This document shows positions 18,196 through 34,555 of a stretch of DNA of 64,000 nucleotides, piece after piece. The position numbers and the translations under genes were made by a program. The stretch comes from a bacterium. Its GTDB lineage: Bacteria; Hinthialibacterota; Hinthialibacteria; Hinthialibacterales; Hinthialibacteraceae. Numbering within the stretch: position 1 is the stretch's first letter; every line of letters begins with the position of its first letter. The notes below the pieces were generated by a model, which saw only the letters and a list, made by a program, of their open reading frames with translations, did no database searches and was not told the DNA's origin. The DNA lies in the NCBI GenBank assembly GCA_963662285.2, contig CAXXMV010000002.1:512001-576000 (forward strand). The letters run 5' to 3'.

Positions 18196-20721
18196 CTAAT
18201 ACAACGACCAATTACTGACTGGCGTTTGCAATACAGTACTTAAATACTCCCGGCGCAAGCGTACGAATGTACGAAGAGTTTCGTAGGATTCATTAATCTG
18301 GCTTCGACGATCATCTCGCTCTCCACCCATTTGCTCTTCGAGCAGCAGCAAATCTGCCAGCAGAAATTGCTCAATCTCATCAATTTTGCTATACATCCGC
18401 TCTTCACTGAACGAATTATTGAATTCATGTGTTAAGCGATCAATATACTCCTGGTGTAAAACATTATTGTTGTGCAATCTACCTGTTACAGGACCAGTGG
18501 AGCGTGAGGCATGAGCGGCCTGTCCATTAAGCGGGAAATTAACCGGCATTTCTGCAAACATATGATTTGAATCAGTGTATCCCCATGTTTTATCTAAATC
18601 CCACGGAATTATCTCCCATTTTTGGGTATCGGGATCGAGGTACATCCAGTTATTGTTATGGAAACCATCCCAGTTGCTTGATAAAACTGAAGCTACGCTA
18701 TATGCCAAAAATTCATCGATCACTAAATTAGTGGTTAATGCTTCATAAAGTTCATCCTGATCTCTAGGTTTAAGCGCTATGGCCAATGCATCAATACTGT
18801 CAGTTCCATTTTCTAGATTGGTATGCGGTTCCCACAGCGGATTGACATAGTTTCGTTTAAATAAATCGGCATCGGGATTTCGGTCATTCATTTCCAAAAA
18901 GCGCTCGTTAATTTGTTGTATTAACAATTGCTGAGTTTGATATCCGTCGGTAATTACGCGGAACCAATCCGTGCGGGGAGACGGGATGCCGAATTCCCAG
19001 AAAAACCAAAATCCGAAATCTTCGCGATGCGGAGTGCTGGGTCCGGCAGTTGTGCTGCCAGATGGACTCTCTGGCAACATATTCAAAGTCCGGTCGCCAC
19101 GGAACTCTTCACCTTTCAGGAATTTAAGTTTATTTCCATTCCTGGAGGGATAGATCAGCGCCCCATCGAACACAAGAGGATGTTCTTCACCAACCGGCAA
19201 AATCACGGCGCCGCTTACATTGCGGCTCATTTCCGTCAATTTGGTTTGCCCCATGTTGTATGGCCAAAGAACCGGTAATAAAGATTGAATTTCTCCATCA
19301 TAAACAAAGTATGATTCGAAAGGTCTGAGAGTTGTTACATACGGTAAAGTCAATGGAGAACCATCATCCAGAGTGACGATAGCATTGAATCGAACCAGCG
19401 TTTGAGAATCCACAGGAGGAATTTGCGCCTCAAATGTAACAGTATCAATATCTTCCGCTAACCAGTTCATTACAATCCGGTTAAGTTTATCCTCCCCGCC
19501 GCTGGTTCTTTCACCTTCTAACAGATAAACGCCAGTACCATATGAACGGCTATCCAAGTCGCTGGTTAATCCGACTAAAGCTATTGTATTTTTGCCATTC
19601 TTCAGCAAACCGCTTGAATTATCAATTTGATACAATTCGGGTGTATTTAAGTCGTGACTTTTGGTTGCGATAGAATCGTGGGTCACTATTTCAGGAACAT
19701 TCTCACGGGCTACTTCAACGCCATTCAAGTAGCACACAAATCCTCCAGAAAAAAATACATACAAATAAGTGTTCGCTAATGTATCCGCATCTGGAATGGT
19801 AAACTCGCGGCGCAGGTAGACAGTTGAGTATTTACTCCTCATATCTATTAGTTGCGTAGATATCATATTGTTACCACCGTAACCATGCATTCCATTTCCC
19901 TGCTGCCAGGAAGAATCATCAAATTCAGGTTTTGTCCAATCTTTTCCTTCCGATGGTTCTTCTAAGCCTTTAGCATACCGGAACCTATCAAATCCAACTA
20001 CATACATCTCGGGTTGATTTGAGTTACCGCCAGTTCCCTGAACGGCTTCTTCCCACTGCAAGGTCACTGAATTAATGATGCTCGCTCCATCGAAATTCAA
20101 ACTAATTGTTACGTTATCCTTTGAAGTTGGATGTTCAGGAGTTATGTCGTGCGCAATGATCATAGGGCGGGGTTTGGCGTTGATTACTGAATTAACTGCT
20201 CCCGGAGTTCCATCACTCATCCATGAAGCCCGCCAACTATGATGGTCATCGGCAGGTAAATCCCATGAAATTCGTTCAAGAGTTGATCCATACCCATCAG
20301 AAGTTCTCGGCCAGGGTGGATTATCGTTATACTTAAGTTCCTCCACCACTGTTCCATCAGGTCGAACCAGGGTTAACCGTTCGCCGCTATTTGATAATAA
20401 ACCCTCATATGGTCCTAGAATGGATGAAGGGTTGCCTCGCCAGGTTCTTTGTTCAGGATCACGCGCCAAGATTAAATATTTCCCTGATTCCAAGACGGTC
20501 GCATCCGGGAAAGTAAAAGTAATGCCTTTGGTGAATTGATACCCCGATAGATCGATTGATTCCGGGCCGGGATTATACAATTCAACAAACTCGCGAAGAG
20601 AACCAGCCGTATATTGTACGTCAGTCGGGTTGTAACTAATTTCGTTAATCACTACATCCGCATATACAGCAAAGAAACTCACGCACATAAATAACGCCAG
20701 GCAAAAAAATCTTTTAATCAT
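18196..20721 (-). CDS. Secreted lamin-tail-domain / CotH-family kinase protein
   Basis: Signal peptide from MIKRFF (GGAG RBS); LTD motif VVINEISYNP...FVELYN; CotH motifs NWDG-HNNWMY and IIPWDLDKTWG; ends TPVSNWSLY. Confidence 0.85.
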   Translation of the reverse strand: MIKRFFCLALFMCVSFFAVYADVVINEISYNPTDVQYTAGSLREFVELYNPGPESIDLSGYQFTKGITFTFPDATVLESGKYLILARDPEQRTWRGNPSSILGPYEGLLSNSGERLTLVRPDGTVVEELKYNDNPPWPRTSDGYGSTLERISWDLPADDHHSWRASWMSDGTPGAVNSVINAKPRPMIIAHDITPEHPTSKDNVTISLNFDGASIINSVTLQWEEAVQGTGGNSNQPEMYVVGFDRFRYAKGLEEPSEGKDWTKPEFDDSSWQQGNGMHGYGGNNMISTQLIDMRSKYSTVYLRREFTIPDADTLANTYLYVFFSGGFVCYLNGVEVARENVPEIVTHDSIATKSHDLNTPELYQIDNSSGLLKNGKNTIALVGLTSDLDSRSYGTGVYLLEGERTSGGEDKLNRIVMNWLAEDIDTVTFEAQIPPVDSQTLVRFNAIVTLDDGSPLTLPYVTTLRPFESYFVYDGEIQSLLPVLWPYNMGQTKLTEMSRNVSGAVILPVGEEHPLVFDGALIYPSRNGNKLKFLKGEEFRGDRTLNMLPESPSGSTTAGPSTPHREDFGFWFFWEFGIPSPRTDWFRVITDGYQTQQLLIQQINERFLEMNDRNPDADLFKRNYVNPLWEPHTNLENGTDSIDALAIALKPRDQDELYEALTTNLVIDEFLAYSVASVLSSNWDGFHNNNWMYLDPDTQKWEIIPWDLDKTWGYTDSNHMFAEMPVNFPLNGQAAHASRSTGPVTGRLHNNNVLHQEYIDRLTHEFNNSFSEERMYSKIDEIEQFLLADLLLLEEQMGGERDDRRSQINESYETLRTFVRLRREYLSTVLQTPVSNWSLY

Positions 20722-20817
20722 CTTATACTCCATCTTGATTTGAGTTATTAGAATAATTCTGGTGGAGAACAATGTAATCATTCTCTGATTACTTAAACGT
20801 GTTTCTTCTCATATATA

Positions 20818-20869
20818 TACGAATATAAACTGTAAATTGTTCAATAAAAAAAATTATTGAACAATTTAC
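20818..20869 (-). promoter_or_regulatory. ECF-type promoter candidate overlapped by a perfect 16-bp inverted repeat
   Basis: Minus strand TGAAC-N17-CGTA (20843-20818). Inverted repeat GTAAATTGTTCAATAA-A6-TTATTGAACAATTTAC at 20832-20869. Confidence 0.45.
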
Positions 20870-20981
20870 CTATATAGTTTGTTGAATGAATTTAAGAAAT
20901 GGATTTGTTCTACTATTGCATGAATATATAATAAAAATAGTATACTAATTCACTTACATGGAAATTTTCATATACGTAATT

Positions 20982-21007
20982 CGGGGCGTGGATTAATCCA
21001 CGCCCCG
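20982..21007 (-). terminator. Palindromic hairpin downstream of sucC
   Basis: CGGGGCGTGGATTAATCCACGCCCCG is a perfect 26-bp palindrome about 30 nt after the sucC stop. Confidence 0.65.
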
Positions 21008-21035
21008 GTTAACAATAATCCTTGTTAAAAACTAA

Positions 21036-22199
21036 CTAATTTGCATTAATCGCCGCGACTACTTTCTCAGCCGCCTCGCCCAATCCACTTGCCACGATGA
21101 ATGGAAAATCAGCTTTATTGAGGATATCACGCGCTTCTTTGGCGTTGGTTCCTTGAAGCCGCGTCACTACGGGCATGTTAACCTCAACCTGCTTCATGGC
21201 TTCTACAATACCACTGGCGACGCGGTCGCAACGGACGATCCCGCCGAATATATTTACTAGCACTGCTTTGACGTCTTTATCTTTCATCAGGATGCGAAAA
21301 GCCGCCGCTACCCGCTCGACGCTGGCCGCTCCCCCTACATCAAGGAAATTGGCCGGCATTGATCCGGCCAGTTTAACCATGTCCATAGTAGCCATTGCCA
21401 AACCGGCGCCGTTGACCATACAGCCTACGTTGCCGTCTAGTTTGATATAGTTTAGGTTATGCATAGACGCTTCTACTTCGAGCGGCTCTTCTTCGGTCAA
21501 GTCGCGCAGCTCATGAAAATCCTGGCGGAACAAAGCGTTGTCATCCAGATTAATTTTGGCGTCTAGCGCGATTACGCGTCCATCGTCTGTTACAATTAAT
21601 GGATTAATCTCCACCAACGAAGCGTCACAAGCAGCGAAGACATTAAACAATTTTACCAGAAAATTCATGCATTCCTTAGCTTCTTTACCTCTTAATCCAA
21701 TACCGTAGGCCAGATTCTTGGCCTGAAATGGTAAAAGGCGTCCCAGGCATGAAATATGCGCTTTAAGGATTTTCTCAGGAGATAGAGCGGCAACTTCCTC
21801 AATCTCCATGCCGCCTTCGGATGAAGCCATAACAACTGGGCTCTCCGTCGTACGGTCGATAACAATACCGAGATAGAGTTCTTTGGCGATAGGTAGACCT
21901 TCTTCAACCAAAACCTTTTTAACTTTTTTGCCTTCTGGTCCGGTCTGATGGGTAATTAGCGTCATTCCTAGAATATTATTGGCGATTTGACCAGCTTCTC
22001 TTGGGGAGTTGGCTATTTTTACTCCACCGCCTTTGCCTCGTCCACCTGCGTGGATCTGTGCTTTAACCACCACTTTGTCTGATCCCAATAGATAAGCTAT
22101 GCGCTCAGCTCCATCAGCCGTCGATACAATCTGACCTCGAGGTATAGGAACATCGTATTTGCGCAGAATCTCCTTGGCTTGATATTCATGAATTTTCAT
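21036..22199 (-). CDS. sucC: Succinyl-CoA synthetase beta subunit
   Basis: MKIHEYQAK, KAQIHAGGRGKGGGV, NGAGLAMATMD, ANFLDVGG and NIFGGIVRCD motifs. Confidence 0.96.
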   Translation of the reverse strand: MKIHEYQAKEILRKYDVPIPRGQIVSTADGAERIAYLLGSDKVVVKAQIHAGGRGKGGGVKIANSPREAGQIANNILGMTLITHQTGPEGKKVKKVLVEEGLPIAKELYLGIVIDRTTESPVVMASSEGGMEIEEVAALSPEKILKAHISCLGRLLPFQAKNLAYGIGLRGKEAKECMNFLVKLFNVFAACDASLVEINPLIVTDDGRVIALDAKINLDDNALFRQDFHELRDLTEEEPLEVEASMHNLNYIKLDGNVGCMVNGAGLAMATMDMVKLAGSMPANFLDVGGAASVERVAAAFRILMKDKDVKAVLVNIFGGIVRCDRVASGIVEAMKQVEVNMPVVTRLQGTNAKEARDILNKADFPFIVASGLGEAAEKVVAAINAN

Positions 22200-22303
22200 T
22201 CCAGAACTCCTTTCACCAACCGTCAGCGTGTTATGCAAAATGATGTTCATATTTATGATATAAAACGAACATCATTTTGTTAACCGCTCTTGCCAACACC
22301 GGA

Positions 22304-24976
22304 TTATTTTGAATCCGGTTTTTCGTTCTCATTTATTGTATCATTACTATCTTTTGTAATTTCTTTGAGTTTCGACTCAATTTCTATTAGTTGATCTTCT
22401 AATTCTTGATTTTTATCTTGTAGTTTATCTATTAGCCCGGCGTTTTTGCCAGATAAATCGCTCTCGTGGTCACGGCGAATTTCAGAAATAGCTCGTTTCG
22501 CCTCGTTGCGAATGTTTTCCTTACCATCATTACTCTCGATCCATTGCAATTGAGAGATGGCGTCTTCATGGCCTAATGATTGTAAACCGGAAACTGCTGC
22601 GCTTCGGATAGATGGTGAAGATGATTTCAAGTAGTTCAAAAGCAGATTCAAGGCGCTTGATTGATTTTTCTTGGTTTCACCCGCCAATCGACCTAATCCC
22701 CTGATAGCGGTTGTGCGTAAGTCTCTATGATAAGGGTCTTTAGAGAAACTTTCCAGGTCGCTGAATACTTGTGGTTCTTTGAGGTCTACCAGCGTATTCA
22801 AAATTGAGGATTGCATCTGATGTCTCCATGAATTGCGTTTTAATCCTGATTTTAATACTGAATAGACCTTCTCCGGTTTTAAGCGGGCCAGCGTTCGCAC
22901 GGCGCTGGATGCCACGCTATTGCTGGGATCATTTTTTATTATATCGATCAACACATTAATTACTTCTTTATCTTTATAAAACCCCCGCAGGGAATTTACA
23001 ACCTTACCCCTCACTTTTGGCTCATTATCTTTTAGTAGAGACAACAGGGCTTCTTTGGCTTCGGCGTCTCTTTCTTTGCCCAAAACATCGATGGCTTCGA
23101 GCCGCACGCGGAGGTATGGATCGTTTTTAGCAGTTTTCAGCAGCGCCTCCCGGACGGTTTTATTCCTGCGGTCGGTCAATTTTTGAACCGCACGGATACG
23201 GATAATAATGGTTGAACCGTTTTCCAGGTCATAGAGCAGCATATCCTGTGATTTTTCATGCTCTTGTTCCATCAATGCCCGTAGGCGGTGGTTTAGATTG
23301 ATGCTTTTAGGGGCATTAGGGCAATCGATGAAGATGCTCTCGTCTTTTTTGGTGATTTCAATCTTCTTCTCAATGGTTTGGTCTTCAGTGCGGATTTCAA
23401 TTTCCAATGGAAATGCGAAAGCTGGTTTTCCTTCTTCCATCTTCTGGGTCTGTTTCAGCGTCAATTTGACCTGCTTGCTTTCTGGCAGCCATTGGTGTTC
23501 GATTTTCAAAACAGGGTGTCCGGGGCCATAGACCCATTGCTCAAAAAAGCGGTCCATTGACCGTCCTGTAACTGTTTCAAACGATTCCATTAGATCATCG
23601 CTATCCACCAGACCGGGCGCGTTTTGATTGAGGTAATGGTTCAAACTCTTGCGGAACAGATCGTCGCCCAGCTGATGCCTTAGGATATGCAGGACGCTGG
23701 CGCCTTTAGGGTATGAATGACTGTCGAACATCTCTCCGGCGTCTTCAAACTGGTTAGATACTATAGGGCGCGTGTAACTCCGCGCTTCGCCGAAATAACT
23801 GCTCATTTTGTTCATCATAGCTTCCAGGTAAGCGTCTTCTCCCTTGGTATGCTCAACCCAAAGAGCATCTGAAAGTGTGGCGAATCCCTCGTTGAGCCAT
23901 AATTCGGGCCATGACTGGCAGGTGACCAGATCGCCGAACCATTGGTGAGCCAGTTCGTGCATGATCAGCCCTTCCATGTCATTATCCTGCCGGGCGTTCT
24001 GATCCATTACAATCCATTCATGCATGGTGGTGGCCGTGGTATGCTCCATGCCTCCAGCGTGAAAATAACGCACGGATGACTGGGCGTATTTTTCGTAGGG
24101 ATATGGATAATCCAGGTAGTTGCTGAAAAACTCGATCATATCCGGCGTCATGCCCATGCTGGGGCGGGCATCCTTTGCTTGACCTTTGGCTACGTAATAT
24201 TCAACTGGTTTGCCGCGCCATTCGTCGCGTACAATATCAAAATGCCCTACCACCAGACTGATCAGGTAGGTCACATGGGGTATTTTCTGTTTCCAATGAT
24301 CGGTGCGCCAGCCGCCTTCAGTTTTAGAATCGATCATCAGGCCGTTGGAGAGGGTGACGAAATCCTTGGGGACGCTGACAAAGACTTCGGTAGTCATGCG
24401 GTCGTTGGGGTAGTCGCCGCATGGGAACCACGATGAAGCGCCGAATGGTTCTGACAGGGTGTACATCTGGTCGGCTGTTTTGGGGGCTGATTGTTTTTCA
24501 TTGGAAAAGAACATGCCTCCACCGAAGCGGCCGCCGACATTCAGTACATTGGCTTCATAGGATACTGATAAGGTTATGTCCTCACCCATCGCCAAAGGCT
24601 TGTCGAAATTTATATAGATGGAATTATCCGAATATGTCCAATCAAGTTTCTCCGCTAATGAACTGTTGACCTCATTGATAGTCATGTCATAAGCGTCGAG
24701 CCGAACTGAGGTTACATTCTCATGAATGGGTTGCAACTGGTAATGAGCCGTTCCTTCGACTGATTGTTGATCCATCAGTATCTTGATCTCAAGTTTAAGA
24801 TGCTCAAAATCAACCGTACGGTCAGGACGATAGTGGCGTGGATATGCGCCATCGGTCATCTTGGCTGGAAACAAGGCGTGATTGTGCGCCATGTCTCCCG
24901 CATGAGCCGCAACTACTCCACCAAAAGCCAACAAAGCAAGCAATAAACCAGCGATACAACGAGATAGTCGAGACAT
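22304..24976 (-). CDS. Exported M1-family aminopeptidase with HEAT repeats and coiled-coil tail
   Basis: Signal peptide; GGMEH; HELAHQWFG-x-WLNEGFA zinc motif; YPKGA; C-terminal HEAT-like repeats. Confidence 0.9.
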   Translation of the reverse strand: MSRLSRCIAGLLLALLAFGGVVAAHAGDMAHNHALFPAKMTDGAYPRHYRPDRTVDFEHLKLEIKILMDQQSVEGTAHYQLQPIHENVTSVRLDAYDMTINEVNSSLAEKLDWTYSDNSIYINFDKPLAMGEDITLSVSYEANVLNVGGRFGGGMFFSNEKQSAPKTADQMYTLSEPFGASSWFPCGDYPNDRMTTEVFVSVPKDFVTLSNGLMIDSKTEGGWRTDHWKQKIPHVTYLISLVVGHFDIVRDEWRGKPVEYYVAKGQAKDARPSMGMTPDMIEFFSNYLDYPYPYEKYAQSSVRYFHAGGMEHTTATTMHEWIVMDQNARQDNDMEGLIMHELAHQWFGDLVTCQSWPELWLNEGFATLSDALWVEHTKGEDAYLEAMMNKMSSYFGEARSYTRPIVSNQFEDAGEMFDSHSYPKGASVLHILRHQLGDDLFRKSLNHYLNQNAPGLVDSDDLMESFETVTGRSMDRFFEQWVYGPGHPVLKIEHQWLPESKQVKLTLKQTQKMEEGKPAFAFPLEIEIRTEDQTIEKKIEITKKDESIFIDCPNAPKSINLNHRLRALMEQEHEKSQDMLLYDLENGSTIIIRIRAVQKLTDRRNKTVREALLKTAKNDPYLRVRLEAIDVLGKERDAEAKEALLSLLKDNEPKVRGKVVNSLRGFYKDKEVINVLIDIIKNDPSNSVASSAVRTLARLKPEKVYSVLKSGLKRNSWRHQMQSSILNTLVDLKEPQVFSDLESFSKDPYHRDLRTTAIRGLGRLAGETKKNQSSALNLLLNYLKSSSPSIRSAAVSGLQSLGHEDAISQLQWIESNDGKENIRNEAKRAISEIRRDHESDLSGKNAGLIDKLQDKNQELEDQLIEIESKLKEITKDSNDTINENEKPDSK

Positions 24977-25131
24977 GAACCATACCCTCCAAGTATAAAG
25001 TGATGCAAGGATTATAAACCTCAAAGGCTAAGGCGGGAGGGCGGATGGCTTTGTGTTGTTGATATTTGGATTAACCGGGGTGGTGGATAAAAGGAGAAAG
25101 TGGTTTTTTACGCTCATTAAGTCAATATAAT

Positions 25132-25169
25132 GCAAAAGGGGTGCGTGAAAAATCACGCGCCCCTTTTGC
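25132..25169 (-). terminator. Intrinsic terminator of the VIT-vWA gene
   Basis: GCAAAAGGGGTGCGTGA-AAAA-TCACGCGCCCCTTTTGC. Confidence 0.7.
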
Positions 25170-25178
25170 TATGGGAAC

Positions 25179-27590
25179 TTATTGCCAAATGCCAATCTTG
25201 GCAGTTTGAGCCGATTCTTGCGCGGATTTAAATTCTTCTAGATAGGTCGTATCTTTCGATGACTGGATATAAACCGCGTATCCTAGTTCAACCAGTTTTA
25301 CATTGATATTGCGCTGATTGATGAAAAGATATACCTGTTTATTGTTGATCGATTTATCCGTATCAACAAATTCTACATATATTTCTTTCCCTTGAAGCCA
25401 TTTTTGCAGGAATTTGATCAATTCGCTATAAACGGCTTTGTTTTCAACCGGGAATTCTATATCTACCAGGCGAACGGTTTCTTCTTTTCCATTAATGATA
25501 ATCTTTATTAAACCATCCTCCATTACATTAAGTATTGTGCATTTGATGGATGATGGAATTATTCCCGGACCGGGTATTAATACATCGCCTGTATTTTCAT
25601 GGATAGACCAGTCATTAACGGGAACAGACATGCCAGGATCATTATCCTGATTCTGGGGCGGTTCGCCAACGGCATAATCAGATACTCCATCAGGCAATGG
25701 AACTGGTTGTTTGATCGTTTCTCCTTCTCCTCCTTCATTGCGTATGATGTAATCTACGGCGATAAAAGAAGTGTAGTTGGTTAACATGTTGTATTTTAAT
25801 CCAAGTTCGATTACCGCGCTGGCATTGTCGGGAAAACCCATAGCCCCATAGTCGTAATTGGTTTTGGCATCATAATCAGACAGCGTTTTTATGCGATGTC
25901 TGGCCCACAAATAGCGCAGGGCTTTATTGGATTCGTTCTCTAACTCAGGGCTTAGTTCATAGGTTTGTTCAAAAGGTCCATTACCGGTAAAACCTGATAC
26001 GGTGATTGATCCGGTTGGCTCGCCAATATATTTTCCAAACGCAATGATTGGCCGTTGAGTGAAAAGATCGGGAATAGCAGGCGGTTCGATATCATAGACC
26101 TCTAAGTCGCTGAAATTGATTTCTATTTGAGAAAGAACCGGATTTTGGATGTATTTTTGGAATTTAGTTATATTCTCATCAACTTCACCGGGATTGGTAA
26201 TAAAGAATGGTTCGCCTCTTCCAGCATAGGCCATGCCTTCAATGATGAAACGGTTGACGGATGTTCCGATTCCCAATGCGAATAAATTTGATAGGTTCAG
26301 TTTGTTACGGATCAGGTCGAAGGCCTCGTATTCAACTGTGACATAACCATCAGTGATGACAACAGTGGATCGTGCGATATCCTCAGATTGATGGGGGAGG
26401 TTGAAGGTTCTCTCCAAGGCTGGCAACAATCGCGTACCTCCCCCGCCGTACAAATTTCCTATACGTGTGATTGCATCATTAATGTTTGCCGGAGTGGCCG
26501 GGACTGAGGAATCGTACAATACCATGCTTCCGCCGGCGAATGTCAGCACATTGAAATAATCTGTAGGGCGTAACTCTTCAAGTAGTCCGAATATCAGTTG
26601 TTTGGCAGTATTCAGAGGGTATCCACTCATCGAACCGGAAACATCCAGCACGAAATTGTAATCCCGTGGTGGAATGATTGATTCAGTGATTTGATCCGGG
26701 GGTTCGACCATAACAAGAAAGAAATTCTCGTCTTCATGGCGATAAAGCAGAACGCCGGATTGAATGACGTCATCCTGTAAGTTGTAGCGCAGGATATAAT
26801 CCTTGGTTCCTGCTTTTTCTGTTGCATTGAGAATTATATCGGCCTGATACGGCGTCTCGTATTGGACATTGATGTCATGCATAACGGATGTGACGCTTTT
26901 GATGGGAATGCCGGATGAAATCGAAGCCGTAATGTTGTAATCGAATAAACTGTCTTCGCCCTCATGGGTGTATGGCGTTTCGATATATCCCTCTGAATCG
27001 TGAGAGCCTTCCGCAGGCGTTTCTGAATAACGCGGCCCGACCACGGTGGGATAAACGAATTCATACGTTCCATCTTCTGGAACCAGTAGTTCAACATAAT
27101 GAAGTTCGACGACGATCACATCGCCGGGCATGATATTGGCAACGCTCATCTGGAATACATTGGGACGTTGCTGTTCGAGAAGAGTGACGCTTTTTCCTTC
27201 GTCTTTGGCTTCATCGTATTCCTTTTGAGCCTGCTTTTTCTCGCGGATTTCCGCTTCGATCAGCCGGTCGCCGATTCGCATACTCATGGCGTGGACTGCG
27301 GCGCGGGTGGATGCCGGGAACACATAAATAGCCTCAATGGGGCGCGTTCCTTCGTTGGCGTAGGTCTGCTTGACGCTGACCGCCGCCATCACCCCGGCGA
27401 TTTGTGAATCTACCTCACAACTCTTAAGCGGAAGCTGATCCAGGGTTGGATCATCACTTTGAACATAGAAAAAAGGCGATAGGGTTTTATCTTCGTTTTG
27501 AACTTCCTGGGCGCTGGTATTCATTGCGGTGAGACCAGAAACTAAACAGGCGAGCAAAGTAATCAGGCAGATTGAACGGTTGGATTTCAT
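25179..27590 (-). CDS. Secreted VIT + vWA domain protein with C-terminal thermonuclease(SNase)-like domain
   Basis: Signal peptide; VIT motifs (QTYAN...IEAIYVFP...NVFQMSVANI); MIDAS DVSGSM, GGT and ITDG; C-terminal VRL...NINVKLVELGYA...AQESAQTAKIGIW. Confidence 0.85.
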   Translation of the reverse strand: MKSNRSICLITLLACLVSGLTAMNTSAQEVQNEDKTLSPFFYVQSDDPTLDQLPLKSCEVDSQIAGVMAAVSVKQTYANEGTRPIEAIYVFPASTRAAVHAMSMRIGDRLIEAEIREKKQAQKEYDEAKDEGKSVTLLEQQRPNVFQMSVANIMPGDVIVVELHYVELLVPEDGTYEFVYPTVVGPRYSETPAEGSHDSEGYIETPYTHEGEDSLFDYNITASISSGIPIKSVTSVMHDINVQYETPYQADIILNATEKAGTKDYILRYNLQDDVIQSGVLLYRHEDENFFLVMVEPPDQITESIIPPRDYNFVLDVSGSMSGYPLNTAKQLIFGLLEELRPTDYFNVLTFAGGSMVLYDSSVPATPANINDAITRIGNLYGGGGTRLLPALERTFNLPHQSEDIARSTVVITDGYVTVEYEAFDLIRNKLNLSNLFALGIGTSVNRFIIEGMAYAGRGEPFFITNPGEVDENITKFQKYIQNPVLSQIEINFSDLEVYDIEPPAIPDLFTQRPIIAFGKYIGEPTGSITVSGFTGNGPFEQTYELSPELENESNKALRYLWARHRIKTLSDYDAKTNYDYGAMGFPDNASAVIELGLKYNMLTNYTSFIAVDYIIRNEGGEGETIKQPVPLPDGVSDYAVGEPPQNQDNDPGMSVPVNDWSIHENTGDVLIPGPGIIPSSIKCTILNVMEDGLIKIIINGKEETVRLVDIEFPVENKAVYSELIKFLQKWLQGKEIYVEFVDTDKSINNKQVYLFINQRNINVKLVELGYAVYIQSSKDTTYLEEFKSAQESAQTAKIGIWQ

Positions 27591-27933
27591 GACAGCATTC
27601 CCTCTCTTGTTTTAGAGTGCTTTTCATAAACATAATTTTATAAATAGCTCTATGCACGTCACTTTTTCAACGGTTGGTTTTGGCAATTTATTACAGGTAC
27701 GGATCAAACAATTTCAATACTGATAAACTCCGGCTTTACCATTAAAACAATATCACGGGAAATTAAATTCATCTGCAATAATAGTAATATATATTAAAAA
27801 TATGCACCATGTATTTTGTATTTATTTGTAAATAGTGCGTTGATTTGTGTTGGATGGAAGGCAGACAGGAATAATTTCCTTCTTTGCGTCTCGACCGATT
27901 GATTTTACGCCGGACGTGCTTTATTTTAGAAGC

Positions 27934-29214
27934 ATGAGACATCAATGGAGTATGCTTCTTCTGCTTGCAGTCATGACATGCTGCATTGCCGCTGTGCAAT
28001 GCCAGGCTCAACCGACGTCTGCAACCGCCGCAACCGTCGACGTCGTAACTCCCGCACCGACTATTACTTATACGCCGACTGTAATCCCTGAACCGAGTCT
28101 TACGCCCAGCGCTATCTCTGATGCATATCCAGCATTAAAGGTGGAAATAGCCGGGCAGGTGGTTGAGGTGACTCCGGTCTCCGCCCAACAAATCCTTCAA
28201 TTTCAACAATGGGAAAAGCAGAACGCCGATGCTTCTTGTAGATCCAAACTTGCGTGGTGTGGTTTTGCGGGCGCCATAGTAGCGCTTGGAATAGCTTTAT
28301 CACGGTCGATTAGCCACTACAATCAAGTTCACGAGCAGATGATGACATCTTTCCGCGAGCGGCTCTTCTCCAAAGACCCCGGAGCAGTAATAGCCGCCGC
28401 CATGAGTTTGTCCGCTTATCCCCGCGAGGCCATCTGGCTGGTCATGCGCTTTGCTGAAGAGCATAAGCGGGAGAAACTTGAAGGCATTTTTTATAAAGAC
28501 CCGCACCAGATTAAACAGGCCATCCAGGATGCCATGTCCAATATGTCAAAACGGTATACATGGTACTGGAAACCGCCATTCAAAATCCGGGGCGCCCGCT
28601 TGGATGGTAAGACCATTTCCATTGATATTGGCCCGATAAATTTAAATAACGCATACATGGTTGGCGGTGATTTCAGTGGAATTGGCCTAGAAGGAGCCAA
28701 ACTTAATTCCGCCAATCTGCAGGACGCCAAACTTAGGAGTGCCAAGCTACAGGACGCCTACCTTGCTTTCGCCAAGTTGCAGAAAGCTTACCTTGGTTTC
28801 GCGAAGTTGCAGAAAGCCTACCTTTGTGAAGCCAATCTGCAGAAAGCCAACCTTAATTTCGCCATTCTGCAGAAAGCCAACCTTTGCAAAGCCAATCTGC
28901 AGGAAGCCTACCTTAGTGATGCCGAACTTGGTTCCGCCAACCTAAATGGCGCAAATCTAAGAAAAATAAAACTCCAAAATGCAGAATTGGAGGATGATTA
29001 CCTTAGTTATGCTAAAAACATGGGCGCCATTTTGGATGATGAACAGAAACAAAAGGTATTAGAATGGGAAAATGACCATACCGATGCCCCTTGGTTGAAT
29101 ACGATCCCTTGTTGGTGGGTATATCGGCGTGATGAAAATAGGAGAAGTAAATTACAAAACGACTGGGCTGAAGAGATGGGGGAATATATTGATAAGATCC
29201 GAGAAGAAAAATGA
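27934..29214 (+). CDS. Membrane-anchored pentapeptide-repeat protein
   Basis: Signal peptide, Thr/Pro-rich linker, TM helix and A(N/K/Y)Lxx pentapeptide repeats. Start inferred. Confidence 0.8.
   Translation: MRHQWSMLLLLAVMTCCIAAVQCQAQPTSATAATVDVVTPAPTITYTPTVIPEPSLTPSAISDAYPALKVEIAGQVVEVTPVSAQQILQFQQWEKQNADASCRSKLAWCGFAGAIVALGIALSRSISHYNQVHEQMMTSFRERLFSKDPGAVIAAAMSLSAYPREAIWLVMRFAEEHKREKLEGIFYKDPHQIKQAIQDAMSNMSKRYTWYWKPPFKIRGARLDGKTISIDIGPINLNNAYMVGGDFSGIGLEGAKLNSANLQDAKLRSAKLQDAYLAFAKLQKAYLGFAKLQKAYLCEANLQKANLNFAILQKANLCKANLQEAYLSDAELGSANLNGANLRKIKLQNAELEDDYLSYAKNMGAILDDEQKQKVLEWENDHTDAPWLNTIPCWWVYRRDENRRSKLQNDWAEEMGEYIDKIREEK
28711..28920 (+). repeat. Seven tandem 30-bp units encoding the pentapeptide repeats
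   Basis: Units approximate GCCAA(T/G)CTGCAG(A/G)AAGCC(A/T)ACCTTnnnnnn. Confidence 0.9.
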
Positions 29215-29229
29215 CAGCGTAGGTGCTCG

Positions 29230-29360
29230 TTATCAACCCTCACCTAACCTCTCCCAATCTTGGGAGAGGGATGCTTGAGCCACAGTTTTATTTTACAACT
29301 AGTGATATCCCAAAAGCCCCTCTCCCCCAAGCCTGGGGGAGAATTCAAGAGGGGGTTGAT
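29230..29360. repeat. Inverted doublet of REP-like CCCTCTCCC...GGGAGAGG elements
   Basis: Copy A at 29230-29273 and inverted copy B at 29317-29360; each has an internal hairpin. Confidence 0.7.
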
Positions 29361-29425
29361 TTCGATAACCTTATCCGTTTCATCCCGAAAGTTTATACAT
29401 ATTGATTAACGCAGAAGAAAAAAAC

Positions 29426-29466
29426 TGTCTGAATCATGATACCCAGGATGAAAAGATGCACATGAT
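29426..29466 (+). repeat. TGTCTGAATC-headed GAT-periodic repeat element, copy 1
   Basis: 31/41 identical to the reverse complement of 37192-37232; GAT recurs every 8-9 bp. Confidence 0.6.
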
Positions 29467-29902
29467 GGGCACCCTGGATAATCAGATTATCCAAATAGAA
29501 AACAAGAAAAAACAGATTACTATCTATTCTCTGTTTTTTTTGCTTTCTAAATCCTTATATTGTTCATAAACATTGACATATTCACCCTTTTTCCATTCAG
29601 GCCATTTATCAACTTGATCTGCGACTTTTTTGATATGATCAAGAAAATCTGATGATTTTGTTTTAGTTTGACCGTGATTTGGGTTATTAGTATCATTTAC
29701 CATTTTTAAAATCCTCCATATTTTTCAGTAATACTTTTACTGCAAATTCTTCTCTATTCTAACGCCAAAACAAATAGTCATAAAAAATAAGTCAAAGAAA
29801 AAAATTTAAACTTAAAAACCTTCATTCTATAAACCATCAATAAAACCACTCCTGCCTGTTAGGTTCGATGCTTTGAAGTGATAGAATCTCAAGCATACAA
29901 TT

Positions 29903-31729
29903 ATGAGTTACTTAGACCAGAATATAAAATTTCTTAAGCTGTGTGATGAGGTATTGGCGCAACGGGTGGCCAGTGATGAAAATGACGCCCCCATCGCATT
30001 GCAGGCAACCGAAGCGGGGCCGCCCACTCTGGTCGTGCAGAATGCTGACCAGGCCTATGCCCTGCATCACCCCGAAGACCCTATTTTGCAGAGCCGCGAT
30101 TTTCTCGATGCGATAGAGAATTGGAAGAAATCGCGCAATATCGCCATAATCGGCGGGGGGCTGTGTTATATTCCATTCTTGATCTATCAGGCCCAGAAAC
30201 GGCTGCGTAATTTGATCGTACTCGAACCGTCGATCAGCGTTTTCCGTGCGGCGATGCATGCGGTTGATATGACTCCGCTGCTACGCGATTCGCGGGTCCG
30301 TTTTGTAGTCGGTTCCCAGCCGGGGCTGGTTTATAATTCCCTGCTGCCTATGGTGGTCGAGTTGACCGCTAATCCACTGACCGCCATTGAGGTTCCATCC
30401 ATCAGCGCCGTATTTCCCGACTGGACCAAGTCGGTCAAGCAGCAGTTGATGGAAGTGATGCAGTTTGGTCAAAGCGGTTTGCAGACCAAGTTTAAGGACG
30501 GGCCGCTGACCCTGAGCAACCTTTTCCAAAACCTGCCGCTCATCGCCGAGTCTGCGGGATTAAGCGATTTGGGTGAGTCCCTCAAGGGAGTTCCCGCCAT
30601 CATCGTGGCCGCCGGACCTTCGCTGCAAAAGAATATTGAACAACTGCGCGAGGTGAACGATGATTTCCTGGTCATCTGCACCGATACCGCCTTCGAGACA
30701 TTACGCCGCAAAGGAATTAAGCCACACGCGGTCATCACGGTTGATCCGACTGAACTGAATCTCAAGCATTTCCCCGATGCGTGTTATGATGAGACGGTTT
30801 TGTTGTTTGATCCTGAAGCGCGTCCCGAAATCGCCCGGAAATTCAGTCGCCGCATGACCTTCATGACCGACAAACATCCATTTTTCGAGCATATAGATAA
30901 GAAACTGGGGGGCAAGGGCATTGCTCCCAAAGCCAGTATGGTATCGCAGGCTGGATTGTACGCCGCGCACTTCCTGGGCTGCGACCCGGTAATTCTGATC
31001 GGTCAGGACTTGGCGCTCGATCCACAGAGCGGCCATACCCATAATCCCGAAACCGCCTATTGCCGCACGGCGCAATTTGTGGAGGACGACCGCGACCATA
31101 TCGATATCCCTATCCCCTCCGGCGACCAAAGCATTTCGCGCGAAAACCTGTTTTGGGTGGAGGGCGTCGATGGCAAACCAGTTCCGACCATGCAGAACTT
31201 CATGGTCTATATCAGGTTGTTGGAAAAAGACGCGCATAATCTTCCCCTTCAAATCGTTGACGCCACCGAGGGAGGCGCCAAGATTAAGGGAACCGAGATT
31301 ACGACTCTGGCTGAAGCCATGAAGACCTACCGGAAATCCGGCGCCAAGGTTTCAGAGGCCTTTCAAACAGCTCACATTTCCGGTGATGACGCCCAGTCGC
31401 GTGCGCAAGATTTAATCAATTCATTAAAGAAAATCCTTATATCACGGGTGGATATCGCGCGTGATGCATTGAAGCAGCTGGAAGATTCGCCCGATATGTC
31501 TTTGCCAGTAATCAACAAAGCCATAGAGAGTTATCAGGAAAAAATATTCGCTGATCCAGTAGCCGAATACCTGATAGAATACGGCGCTCCACGGGAATTA
31601 TTCGAATTTATGAAGATGGGACCAGCCCGCGCAACTGACGATGAAGAACAAAAAAGGTCGCTGGAACGCTGCAGAATCTTGCTGGAAGCAGTAAAACAAG
31701 CGGCGGATCGTTTGCTTGAATATATGTAA
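29903..31729 (+). CDS. Motility-associated factor (Maf)/DUF115 family glycosyltransferase-like protein
   Basis: PAIIVAAGPSLQKN, GIKPHAVITVDP, GCDPVILIGQDLA and VDATEGGAKIKG motifs. Confidence 0.85.
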   Translation: MSYLDQNIKFLKLCDEVLAQRVASDENDAPIALQATEAGPPTLVVQNADQAYALHHPEDPILQSRDFLDAIENWKKSRNIAIIGGGLCYIPFLIYQAQKRLRNLIVLEPSISVFRAAMHAVDMTPLLRDSRVRFVVGSQPGLVYNSLLPMVVELTANPLTAIEVPSISAVFPDWTKSVKQQLMEVMQFGQSGLQTKFKDGPLTLSNLFQNLPLIAESAGLSDLGESLKGVPAIIVAAGPSLQKNIEQLREVNDDFLVICTDTAFETLRRKGIKPHAVITVDPTELNLKHFPDACYDETVLLFDPEARPEIARKFSRRMTFMTDKHPFFEHIDKKLGGKGIAPKASMVSQAGLYAAHFLGCDPVILIGQDLALDPQSGHTHNPETAYCRTAQFVEDDRDHIDIPIPSGDQSISRENLFWVEGVDGKPVPTMQNFMVYIRLLEKDAHNLPLQIVDATEGGAKIKGTEITTLAEAMKTYRKSGAKVSEAFQTAHISGDDAQSRAQDLINSLKKILISRVDIARDALKQLEDSPDMSLPVINKAIESYQEKIFADPVAEYLIEYGAPRELFEFMKMGPARATDDEEQKRSLERCRILLEAVKQAADRLLEYM

Positions 31730-31772
31730 ATCCTTTATTTTGCATGATTTATGTATTTATATTGATTCATTG

Positions 31773-31835
31773 CAAAAAAAAGTTAAAAAAAAATAAAAAA
31801 AACTCTTGACATGCGTCACATTTATCAGTTAAAAT
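31773..31835 (+). promoter_or_regulatory. Strong sigma70 promoter with A-tract UP element
   Basis: A-tracts, then TTGACA (31806-31811), N18, TAAAAT (31830-31835). Confidence 0.75.
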
Positions 31836-31841
31836 ATGTAT

Positions 31842-31925
31842 ACCATTGTGAGTACAGATTTTACCTGGTAGATTTTCTCGACCAAGAAAAATTTGCAGGA
31901 AAAGGCCGCGAGAGCGGCCTTTTCC
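31842..31925 (+). ncRNA. Candidate ~85-nt small RNA
   Basis: Lies between the strong promoter and the hairpin GGAAAAGGCCGC-GAGA-GCGGCCTTTTCC (31898-31925). Contains a second imperfect stem and no convincing ORF. Confidence 0.55.
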
Positions 31926-32127
31926 ATGTCTGGAGTTATTTTAAGTTATCTTTTATCTGAGCATTAATTATGCTAGGATGTTTATATAATGTTGTTATAA
32001 ATAAATGGCCCGAGGTTAATCCACGGGCTTCTTTCACGAAGAGAGGCTTTTTTTTAATTCATCTATATTCAAGTGATAATAAAAAAGTGGACGTATTTTA
32101 TCTGGTTTGAGGAAGGAATCCCATCTA

Positions 32128-33153
32128 ATGCAGCGTTTATTGATTACAGGCGGAGCGGGTTTTATCGGCGCTAATTTCATTCAATACATGCTTAAGAAAT
32201 ACGAAGAGATTGAAATCGTCAATCTGGATAAACTGACATATGCAGGAAATCTTGAAAACCTGTGTGGAGTTGAACGGGACGCTAGATATAGTTTCTTTCA
32301 GGGAGATATCGCCGACCGTCATCTGGTCAACGAAATCCTATCCTGCAAGGAATTTGATACTATAGTCAATTTCGCAGCCGAAACCCATGTTGACCGCTCG
32401 ATCAGCCGACCAGACGATTTTCTGAAGACGGATATCTTCGGAACCTTCGCCCTGCTCGAAGCGACTCGCCAATGCAAAGTAAAACGGTATTTACAGATAA
32501 GCACCGATGAGGTTTACGGCTCGATATCCAAAGGTGAATTCACTGAAAGCAGTCCTTTGACGCCATCATCTCCCTATTCAGCCAGTAAAGGCGGCGGTGA
32601 CCTGCTCTGCATGGCTTATCATAAAACATACGGTCTTCCCGCTATCGTAACCCGCGCGGCCAATAATTATGGAGCGTTTCAACACCCCGAAAAATTCATT
32701 CCCCTATTTGTAACCAATGCTATCGAAGACCAACCGCTTCCATTGTACGGCGATGGCAGCCAGGTTCGCGAATGGCTTTTTGTCGAAGACCACTGCCGCG
32801 CTATTGAAACAGTGCTGCGTGAAGGCAAACCGGGCGAGATATATAATGTCGGCGGCCATTGTGAAGAACAAAACCGGGTCATCGCTGAATCTATCGTCGA
32901 TCAACTGAAAAAATCTCGCGACCTGATTACCTATGTCGATGACCGACCCGGACACGATATCCGCTACGCCCTGGATGATTCAAAACTCAGAAACCTGGGC
33001 TGGAAACCGCAAGTCGCCTTGGACGAAGGTCTGGCCCGAACGGTTAACTGGTATAAAAAGAACAAGGACTGGTGGAAAAAAACCAAAGAAGCCGACTACA
33101 AAACCTACTACAAAAACCAATACGAAAAACGTTTCGCCAACGCCAAGGCGTAG
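32128..33153 (+). CDS. rfbB: dTDP-glucose 4,6-dehydratase
   Basis: ITGGAGFIG, LDKLTYAGN, NFAAETHVDRSI, STDEVYG, YSASK and DRPGHD motifs. Confidence 0.96.
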   Translation: MQRLLITGGAGFIGANFIQYMLKKYEEIEIVNLDKLTYAGNLENLCGVERDARYSFFQGDIADRHLVNEILSCKEFDTIVNFAAETHVDRSISRPDDFLKTDIFGTFALLEATRQCKVKRYLQISTDEVYGSISKGEFTESSPLTPSSPYSASKGGGDLLCMAYHKTYGLPAIVTRAANNYGAFQHPEKFIPLFVTNAIEDQPLPLYGDGSQVREWLFVEDHCRAIETVLREGKPGEIYNVGGHCEEQNRVIAESIVDQLKKSRDLITYVDDRPGHDIRYALDDSKLRNLGWKPQVALDEGLARTVNWYKKNKDWWKKTKEADYKTYYKNQYEKRFANAKA

Positions 33154-33197
33154 TAGATATTTGGCTTTTAATACAATCCGGGGTGTAGGATTAGAAA

Positions 33198-33241
33198 CAT
33201 CCCTCTCCCAAGACTGGGATAGGGATATTGAGGGTTGATAA
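33198..33241 (-). repeat. REP-like element, third copy
   Basis: 37/44 identical to the reverse complement of 29230-29273; lies between convergent genes. Confidence 0.75.
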
Positions 33242-33253
33242 TGACCACATGTG

Positions 33254-34530
33254 CTACTGATAAATTTCCCAATTATTAACCTGGCTGTCATAAATAATGG
33301 TTGTGTTTTCGTCCTGGAATATGGCTAGGCCGTCTTCGCCGGATTCTATGTCTTTTAATGGATCACCTACACCGCCCTTGCCGCCTATAGCTTTGACGTT
33401 GGATAGGGTAATGCTTGAGTTGGTGATGTAAATTCCGCAACCGCCATCAGCGGAATCAACAGGCAATTTGGGATTCTCATCAATATTAAGCCCTAGTTGT
33501 CCACTGACGCCATTGCCTCCGATGCACTCGCCGCCCAGAATGGTTATGGCGTGGGAATTCATGATTTCGATTCCCGGTCCGGCTGGTATCATCTTTCTGG
33601 CATTCTTATCAATGTTATATACCTCACCGCCCCAGTTGTTGCGCTTCCGTGCATATCAAATACAACATTAGAGCAGTCTACAATGAATACGCCCGCTAAT
33701 CCCTTATTCCTATCAGGCGCTATCCAATATGATTCTGATGGGATATTATAACTATTATGAGTTCCTGAATTTATGTAAGAGCGTTCAATGTGAATATTTG
33801 CATTACGTATCTTCTCAAATGTAATGGCTCTGGCGCCAATGTCGGTATTACACCTGATTTCCGAATCGGTGATTCGAATATAGGAGGAATCGGTCTGATA
33901 TATATAGATCGCGGGAGTTGCAATTTTAGATGAATTGACATGATAATCAGATGAACCAATGTTGCTTTTACCAATTATTATGGAATTGATAACTTCTACA
34001 TCGCTTTGTATTTTGAAGATACCAGTGATATCTACGTTATCCAAAGTAAGTTTCCCCGATATTACTTGAATGGGATTTGGATAATGCGTATATCCACTAA
34101 CTATAAATGGACTATTTAGCATTAGGTTTTTAATTACAACATTAGAGTTTTGCACTATTAAGGCATTGTCTTTGCTGGTAGGTTCGATGTTGGAATACGA
34201 ACTAGTAAGAAAAATGAAATAATTGCTGTGAATAATCTTCACTCTTTCATTTGGAATAGTACCGATAATAGTAAGGTTTTTATCCTTGATTAGAATCCCG
34301 TTTCTTTGACTTGCCATTGTTGTATCTGGATTTTCTTTTAAAAAATAAACATCATGTTGATTAATCTGAATAACATCGCCGCTAGAGGCTGCTTCAACTG
34401 CTTCCTGGATGGAAGCATAATCTTCTGGTAGGTTAATGATTCTGGCGTGGGCTGAATGAAAGTGAGTGGTGATAATGCATAATGCTATCGAATAAGCAAT
34501 GCGATGGATGAGTGATTTTAGGATAAACAT
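33254..34530 (-). pseudogene. Secreted beta-helix (pectin-lyase-like) protein split by a single-base frameshift
   Basis: Signal peptide and LPEDYASIQEAVEAASSGDVI. Adding one G to the G4 run (33630-33633) joins the two ORFs as ...TTGGGEVYNIDKNARKMIPAGPG...; ends SQVNNWEIYQ. Confidence 0.7.
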
Positions 34531-34555
34531 TATTTCCACCTTATGTTAAAAATCA

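Follow-up and report, generated by a model that had tools for sequence, protein, structure and literature searches.

The question raised by this locus is whether a few residues at the very end of otherwise unrelated proteins may serve as an address. The stretch under study, hereafter the window, comprises 64,000 nucleotides (64 kb) from the genome of an uncultivated bacterium of the phylum Hinthialibacterota (NCBI GenBank assembly GCA_963662285.2, contig CAXXMV010000002.1, positions 512,001 to 576,000), in which an earlier note, made from the letters of the DNA, had pointed to a short motif, V-x-[ND]-W-x-[LI]-[YH], in three exported proteins of different fold. Our analysis indicates that this motif is the core of a genuine, phylum-restricted tag some nine residues long, T-x-[VI]-x-[DNE]-W-x-[LIM]-[YFH], which forms a flexible appendage on Sec-exported, soluble and mostly multidomain proteins. 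It is probably a novel type of post-Sec tag, for addressing or docking, on selected exported soluble proteins, a reading to which we give a probability of roughly 0.65.

Translation of the minus strand confirmed all three motif strings in the window (Table 1). The statement that three signal-peptide proteins share the motif held for the CotH kinase-family protein, in which it is terminal, and for the beta-helix protein, which ends in the tail. It had to be corrected on two points, the copy of the VIT-vWA protein being internal and the beta-helix gene being split. The CotH gene probably starts near 20721, the database form (P0001) having 841 residues against 861 in the open reading frame (ORF). 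An ortholog of the VIT-vWA protein from another genus (L180, genome G012, 44% identity) also has an internal copy, V-N-D-W-F-L-H, located 115 residues before the end with a domain downstream. The claim that VIT-vWA proteins of other lineages bear sorting tags near this position was borne out in part. Indeed, residues 58-638 align to profile positions 3-594 of 629 of the NCBIfam family TIGR03788, “marine proteobacterial sortase target”, so that the motif sits about where the C-terminal part of that family would be, although the score of 409 bits stays under the model cut-off of 551.65. As for the beta-helix gene, a paralog with 79% identity and the homologs from four other genomes form single frames of 349-476 residues, which indicates that the window copy is frameshifted or misassembled, being most likely either a pseudogene or the product of an assembly error. 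Three complete homologous frames were read, and all of them end in the tail or in a near variant.

The recurrence of the motif was then evaluated over the whole genome to which the window belongs (G000; 7.29 Mb in 8 contigs, 92.5% complete, 44% G+C). Six-frame translation yielded 20,691 ORFs of at least 60 residues, comprising a greedy non-overlapping set of 5,815 “gene-like” ORFs and 14,876 remaining “shadow” ORFs. The strict motif occurred 42 times among the 20,691 ORFs, at the exact C-terminus in 35 cases, with one residue after it in three, with two residues in one, and internally in three. A looser pattern, [VIL]-x-x-W-x-[LIMV]-[YFHW] followed by 0-2 residues to the end, was found in 147 gene-like ORFs (about 2.5%) as compared with five shadow ORFs. 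Such recurrence is far beyond chance. The proteome-wide scan proposed in the earlier note revealed a strong enrichment at the C-termini of proteins with signal-peptide-like N-termini.

Among these 147 carriers, the motif is exactly terminal in 125, followed by one residue in 21 and by two in a single protein, the extra residue being mostly acidic (E10, D4, N3, Q2, K2). The consensus (n = 147) reads T-x-[V111/I30]-x-[D48/N30/E24]-W-x-[L91/I33]-[Y92/F32/H22], with conserved hydrophobic positions at 0, -1, -3 and -6 and a last residue of aromatic type (Y92, F32, H22, W1). The column five residues ahead of the tryptophan, although outside the searched pattern, is occupied by Thr in 94 carriers (Val in 29, Ser in 13). 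In the DNA, the tail codons carry only about 0-0.25 bit at their third positions, Thr is encoded by each of its four codons (30/20/17/17), and a mean of 0.09 bit per position is found in the 40 nucleotides past the stop codon. Hence, with almost free third positions and unconserved downstream DNA, selection operates on the protein level, and the tail is conserved as a peptide and not as a DNA repeat.

Which proteins carry the tail was addressed with an ad hoc, loose signal-peptide heuristic that allows alternative starts and has a background rate of 40%. It was positive for 132 of the 147 carriers and for 1,760 of 4,443 other ORFs of at least 150 residues, and several of the 15 negative carriers seem to have signal peptides that it missed. 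None of the carriers has more than one hydrophobic helix past residue 60, whereas 561 of the 4,443 others do; a twin-arginine (RR) motif was present at five N-termini and a lipobox-like sequence at four. Once stripped of their tails, the carriers fell into 75 single-linkage BLAST clusters, the largest with 47 members, or into 98 clusters when similarity had to reach the last 40 residues. In a random sample of 60 carriers, 37 had Pfam matches and 23 had none, the matches spreading over more than 20 unrelated families: CotH with LTD (8), CBM9 (7), Beta_helix, Laminin_G_3, DUF1349, FG-GAP, papain (Peptidase_C1) and subtilisin (S8) proteases, Beta-lactamase-family, Y_phosphatase3, GDSL lipase, GH42, BNR, WD40/LRR, CAP, DUF3160 and others. 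This is in line with the initial idea of a motif common to unrelated exported folds. Besides, the tag is selective within the exported proteome, as illustrated by its absence from all 42 sulfatase paralogs, all 81 members of an oxidoreductase-like family with twin-arginine translocation (TAT) signals and all 118 pilin-like proteins of the genome.

Comparison with homologs points to an add-on and not to a piece of the carrier domains. Of the 120 best homologs found with the CotH half, 91 have the tail at their end, about eight finish precisely with the last CotH helix and several show decayed tails. The CotH homologs P0115, P0117 and P0118 (39-43% identity) carry a type IX secretion system (T9SS) sorting domain, PF18962, in place of the tail, and P0195 and P0206, distant relatives of a beta-helix carrier, end in the same domain. 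An AlphaFold2 model of the window CotH protein, built on a 51-row alignment, had a mean predicted local distance difference test score (pLDDT) of 88.6; its last helix ends at residue 830 of 841, and the score falls to 59 over residues 831-840 and to 36 at residue 841, so that the tail of this protein is predicted to be disordered. Judging from these homologs and this model, the tail is not part of the carrier domains, in answer to the concern of the earlier note that the motif might be integral to each of them. The further description of a signal devoid of transmembrane helix and basic tail, and far shorter than a T9SS domain, also stood: the proteins end with the motif, and nothing hydrophobic or basic comes after it.

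The distribution of the tag was assessed in 35 genomes of the phylum by means of a degenerate DNA pattern for T-x-[VI]-x-x-W-x-Φ-[YFH]-stop, the reversed pattern serving as control. The window genome gave 82 matches for 4 in the control. Counts ranged from 20 to 77 (control 0-5) in the 19 other genomes of family f1, from 7 to 41 (control 0-2) in families f2 and f3, and from 4 to 27 (control 0-6) in family f6, and reached 8 (control 2) in family f5 (G027). Overall, the pattern was enriched in about 30 of the 35 genomes. The sole tag-poor genome was G001 (family f4), with one match in the pattern and one in the control; direct reading of 400 kb of it (G001:C1:1-400000) gave one canonical-like tail in 301 ORFs. 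No recurring ending that could be a variant tail was seen in these 400 kb, in which ORF picking is unreliable at 65% G+C, and two weak CotH-like frames of G001 both end in W-x-x-L-R. This G+C content is to be compared with 44% in the window genome, though both belong to the same class.

Outside the phylum, relatives of SucC served as handles to genomes of other phyla. Ten such genomes (Calditrichaceae, Fermentibacteria, two Planctomycetota, Verrucomicrobia, Rokubacteria, Rhodothermales, Holophagales, Gemmatimonadota and Chloroflexota) had 0-3 pattern matches each, which is the control level, and 151 Planctomycetota genomes had at most nine each, close to their controls. As far as tested, i.e., among these 161 outside genomes, which include no Omnitrophota genome, the tag is confined to one phylum. 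The names borne by homologs assign the window genome to Candidatus Hinthialibacterota (OLB16): those at 63% (CotH) and 51% identity are labelled Candidatus Hinthialibacter antarcticus, and others are given as Omnitrophota/Omnitrophica, an NCBI label found on several tail-bearing homologs, or simply as “bacterium”.

The tail looks like a previously undescribed kind of C-terminal tag when set against the available collections of sequence models. Three 40-residue tails matched no Pfam or NCBIfam family at E values up to 10, and no model matched the tag in a set of 51 tails. The sole recurrent match there was NCBIfam “choice-of-anchor Q”, found in two of the 51 in the residues just upstream of the tag and not in the tag itself; this name designates domains that stand ahead of anchors which differ from lineage to lineage. 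The novelty that the earlier note made dependent on the described sorting models thus holds within Pfam and NCBIfam. Full-text keyword searches on C-terminal sorting or secretion signals yielded no description of the tail, and the words “C-terminal”, “secretion” and “sorting” do not occur in the main text of the phylum-defining paper (PMC9324843).

Bacterial C-terminal sorting signals are, to our knowledge, of two kinds: a motif with a helix and a basic tail, processed by membrane peptidases, and a folded domain, as in the T9SS. The T9SS domain (PF18962 / TIGR04183) resembles the tail in marking the C-terminus of a large and diverse set of signal-peptide enzymes and adhesin-like proteins, and it sits at the tail's position in the CotH and beta-helix relatives. 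However, it is folded, with a Pfam model of 75 positions, whereas the Hinthialibacterota tail has nine residues and is disordered in the model; the Por_Secre_tail profile matched none of the 60 sampled carriers and none of the 51 tails. Small C-terminal sorting signals of the other kind are described, in a dedicated study, as a motif followed by a transmembrane helix and an Arg-rich cluster and cut by an endopeptidase (10.1101/2023.06.07.544157). These tripartite signals (LPXTG/sortase, PEP-CTERM/exosortase, GlyGly-CTERM/rhombosortase, MYXO-CTERM/myxosortase) share with the tail a short, lineage-restricted C-terminal signature on many unrelated exported proteins, and the VIT-vWA carrier resembles a sortase-target family. 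In the tail, however, only the motif is present and not the helix and basic cluster, since 125 of the 147 carriers end with the motif and the other 22 only one or two residues later.

Two other known elements deserve comparison. The WxL domain of Gram-positive bacteria, which has well over 100 residues, contains two W-x-L motifs and mediates non-covalent surface attachment, likewise places a Trp-x-Leu signature near the C-terminus of surface proteins. No such Pfam family was found in the 60 carriers or the 51 tails, however, and the host of the tail has an outer membrane, as deduced from the presence of an Omp85/BamA gene, of which the window genome has one. The peroxisomal targeting signal PTS1 is a tripeptide at the C-terminus that PEX5 recognizes through its TPR domain and, like the tail, a very short free C-terminal tag that addresses folded, unrelated proteins to a translocon. 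It is nevertheless eukaryotic and cytosolic, comprises three residues and has no sequence in common with the tail. By this analogy, a TPR-type reader of the tail would be a guess.

Relatives in other lineages bear recognized sorting signals at the position of the tail, and the tail is itself under selection and, as far as tested, confined to one phylum; it is therefore read as an address or docking tag. We infer this role, and the export route considered below, from the observed position, carriers, lineages and separateness of the tag. The earlier suggestion of a lineage-specific secretion or surface-anchoring tag is thereby supported, with another C-terminal ligand as the competing role. In the proposed mechanism, the signal peptide would carry the protein over the inner membrane, after which the protein would fold and its exposed tail would be bound, at or near the free end, by a periplasmic or outer-membrane receptor. 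This receptor would send the protein across the outer membrane or fix it there. Because the architecture of the tail is unlike that of the T9SS domain or the tripartite signals, the machinery must differ from theirs as well. The searches for known machinery are consistent with this view. In the window genome, at its 92.5% completeness, there was no match to exosortase (PF09721) or to sortase (PF04203), neither of which is retained as the tail machinery; rhombosortase and CPBP-type enzymes were not searched for. The T9SS is not supported either: SprA_N gave no match across the 35 genomes of the phylum, but also none in 14 control genomes, so that this search lacks a positive control, and Por_Secre_tail exceeded its cut-off in the phylum only in three fragmented assemblies.

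The leading route would be one of the many secretin-based systems of the genome, either type II secretion system (T2SS) or type IV pilus-like. The window genome has eight secretin matches in seven loci, with at least three T2SS-type operons, the other loci being MSH/type IV-like, Tad, a pair of small secretins and a TPR-fused secretin. It also encodes about 118 small proteins (about 200 residues) with a prepilin N-terminus, whose likeness to GspG/PilA is limited to the first 60-70 residues; these pseudopilin-like proteins could act as partners. A pilin-like gene is the immediate neighbor of 22 of the 147 carriers, as compared with 6.2 +/- 2.4 in 1,000 permutations (maximum 13), and 20 of the 23 carrier/pilin-like pairs are co-directional (genome average 67%), 16 of them with gaps of at most 200 nucleotides. 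Most of the recurrent neighbors (histidine kinases, oxidoreductases, small heat-shock proteins) lay close to the background or formed local paralog clusters, and only the pilin-like family stood out. A GspC-type PDZ reader beside a secretin was also considered and rejected, none of the eight PDZ_2 matches lying in a secretin locus; they belong to HtrA (four proteins), CtpA, RseP and a beta-helix-PDZ protein.

Two secretins are absent from the tag-poor genome G001. Strong orthologs of the N-terminal region (765 residues) of the TPR-fused secretin occur in 34 of the 35 genomes, G001 being the exception (best E value there 9e-5). In a collection of 5.8 billion proteins, the same region had 33 strong relatives, seemingly all from the phylum, and then none better than E 4.5e-4 among the best 8,000 candidates scored. 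The multi-N-domain T2SS secretin, located at L087:9288-12215, has no ortholog in G001 either. This genome keeps two other T2SS-type secretins, with seven secretin matches in all. A complex prediction combining residues 40-440 of the TPR-fused secretin (33-row alignment) with a 32-residue tail (51-row alignment) gave a score of 0.00; run without controls, it speaks neither for nor against binding. In a more specific version of the route, the tail would be read in the periplasm and the reader would hand folded proteins over to a dedicated, phylum-specific secretin machine, with pseudopilin-like proteins as adaptors or display stalks. This version is put forward tentatively, and we consider it possible but doubtful.

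Several observations weigh against the address reading or against its secretin version. The signal-peptide figures come from the loose heuristic, with its alternative starts and 40% background. In close homologs of a beta-helix carrier, the full pattern is present in just 9 of 39; a Trp lies within the last eight residues in 34 and [TS]-x-[VIL]-x-x-W is found in 23, the last three residues drifting. A receptor that reads only the free end would miss the internal motif copies, i.e., three of the 42 strict matches. As to the secretins, just 22 of the 147 carriers adjoin a pilin-like gene, and every genome of the phylum is rich in pseudopilin genes, even G001 with its 47 matches, the fewest of all. 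G001, 84% complete, is also the single lineage from which the contrast in secretins comes, and this contrast agrees to the same degree with either of two secretin systems. The incomplete genomes G027 and G029, which do have some tags, likewise lack the multi-N-domain secretin. Finally, the TPR part of the fused secretin resembles, below cut-off, assembly factors of the PilW/Tgl type, which would be an ordinary reason for the fusion.

The tail could instead be the ligand of a protease or stress sensor that reads C-termini, such as an HtrA/DegS-like PDZ protein, an S41 protease or a cytoplasmic degron reader, and would then function in quality control, timed processing or envelope stress. The genome indeed encodes four HtrA-family PDZ proteases, one PDZ-containing S41 protease (CtpA-like), RseP and a beta-helix protein that bears a PDZ domain at its C-terminus, and the tail has a hydrophobic/aromatic end, mostly exactly terminal, of the kind known to be bound by PDZ domains and DegS. 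However, such proteases are near-universal in bacteria while the tag occurs in one phylum, and a degron that is found on 2.5% of ORFs, is selective for certain classes and spares the 42 sulfatases and the 81 TAT oxidoreductase-like proteins is hard to explain. Moreover, homologs from other lineages carry secretion domains, not degrons, at the position of the tail, and nine conserved positions exceed what a PDZ pocket usually reads. Taken together, we regard a protease ligand as unlikely. Less likely still is an imitation of the C-terminal signal of outer-membrane beta-barrels, which would engage the beta-barrel assembly machinery (BAM) or SurA-type chaperones for folding or hand-over. Like barrel ends and the ends that activate DegS, which are read at the free end in the periplasm, the tail finishes with an aromatic residue (Y92, F32, H22, W1), with a second aromatic three positions upstream, and the BAM component is represented by the single Omp85/BamA gene. 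The conserved hydrophobic residues of the tail are nevertheless spaced otherwise (0, -1, -3, -6) than in the beta-signal, which alternates at 0, -2, -4 and -6; the carriers are soluble enzymes, lectin-like and repeat proteins instead of barrels; and BAM is universal whereas the tag is phylum-restricted.

That the tail has no function at all, being the last strand of a shared domain, a DNA repeat carried along at the ends of genes or an artifact of the ORF calls, can hardly be maintained. Many carriers do end in lectin-type or beta-helix domains, and 47 of the 147 fall into one loose BLAST cluster. A shared domain is nonetheless difficult to reconcile with 75 clusters (98 with C-terminal similarity) and more than 20 Pfam families, and with homologs that end cleanly ahead of a tail disordered in the model. 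The free synonymous codons and unconserved downstream DNA are contrary to a repeat, and the 5 matches among 14,876 shadow ORFs to an artifact of ORF calling.

Under the preferred reading, that of an address or docking tag, a disordered nine-residue end on about 2.5% of ORFs fits neither known kind of bacterial C-terminal sorting signal and therefore implies an undescribed receptor and probably an undescribed pathway. With it, the secreted or surface proteome of the Hinthialibacterota, which are polysaccharide degraders met in lakes, bioreactors and the subsurface, could be predicted by a simple rule on sequence, and the tail peptide could be used as bait for the machinery. The choice of substrates by secretin-type systems is a long-standing open question, and we know of no linear signal for the substrates of the T2SS as a class. 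If a secretin system does read the tail, that class would thereby gain its first linear secretion signal.

Table 1. Tail-bearing genes and motif copies of the window, in window coordinates, and the TPR-fused secretin, in locus and genome coordinates.
Feature	Coordinates	Strand	Description
LTD + CotH-kinase-family exported protein, tail carrier	18196..20781	-	861-residue ORF; Pfam LTD 40-152, CotH 586-847
Tail T-P-V-S-N-W-S-L-Y of the CotH protein	18199..18225	-	From translation; stop codon 18196-18198 adjoins
VIT-vWA exported protein fused to an SNase domain, internal motif copy	25179..27590	-	Pfam VIT 55-165, VWA 313-464, SNase 705-803
Internal motif V-P-V-N-D-W-S-I-H-E of the VIT-vWA protein	25596..25625	-	Past a low-complexity linker, 139 residues before the end and ahead of the SNase domain
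Beta-helix gene, 3' piece (112 residues)	33254..33592	-	Ends S-Q-V-N-N-W-E-I-Y-Q, the tail being followed by one residue; tail codons 33257-33286
Beta-helix gene, 5' piece (316 residues) with signal-peptide-like N-terminus	33589..34539	-	From translation; frame differs from that of the 3' piece
TPR-fused secretin, 1,057 residues	L091:9423-12596 = G000:C8:420422-423595	-	N-terminal TPR repeats (about 66-314), STN/N0-like domain

Further observations concern proteins with two motif copies and the genes around the secretins. Two proteins of the window genome, at G000:C1:1156453-1158240 (minus strand; L103) and G000:C2:1810512-1812314 (plus strand), have two copies; in one of them an internal motif lies 141 residues ahead of the terminal copy, and in the other the copies are 25 residues apart. 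This suggests that C-terminal modules were duplicated along with their tails. The operon of the TPR-fused secretin is headed by paralogous signal-peptide proteins of 620 and 530 residues (L091:16706-18568 and G000:C8:430061-431653, both on the minus strand), one of which has a cohesin-domain match (E 6.9e-8). Both end in a similar V-R-P-T-T-A-[FY]-L, and two genes, one FliG-like and one pilin-like, are located downstream.

At L085:7549-10265 (plus strand), a T2SS secretin is found as two consecutive ORFs, with N0 and Secretin_N in the former (485 residues) and the secretin domain in the latter (414 residues). G001 shows the same split, with frames of 505 and 437 residues, so that the arrangement may correspond to a real two-gene secretin and not to an error. 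In family f6 (G028:C6:182299-192411, G031:C48, G032:C11, G034:C9), the counterpart of the multi-N-domain secretin occurs in giant frames of 1,636-3,966 residues with many secretin N-domain repeats. Lastly, at L090:14450-16163 (minus strand), the catalytic domain of a class I Glx-tRNA synthetase extends over two overlapping ORFs (438 and 152 residues) adjoining an intact paralog, which is possibly due to a frameshift.

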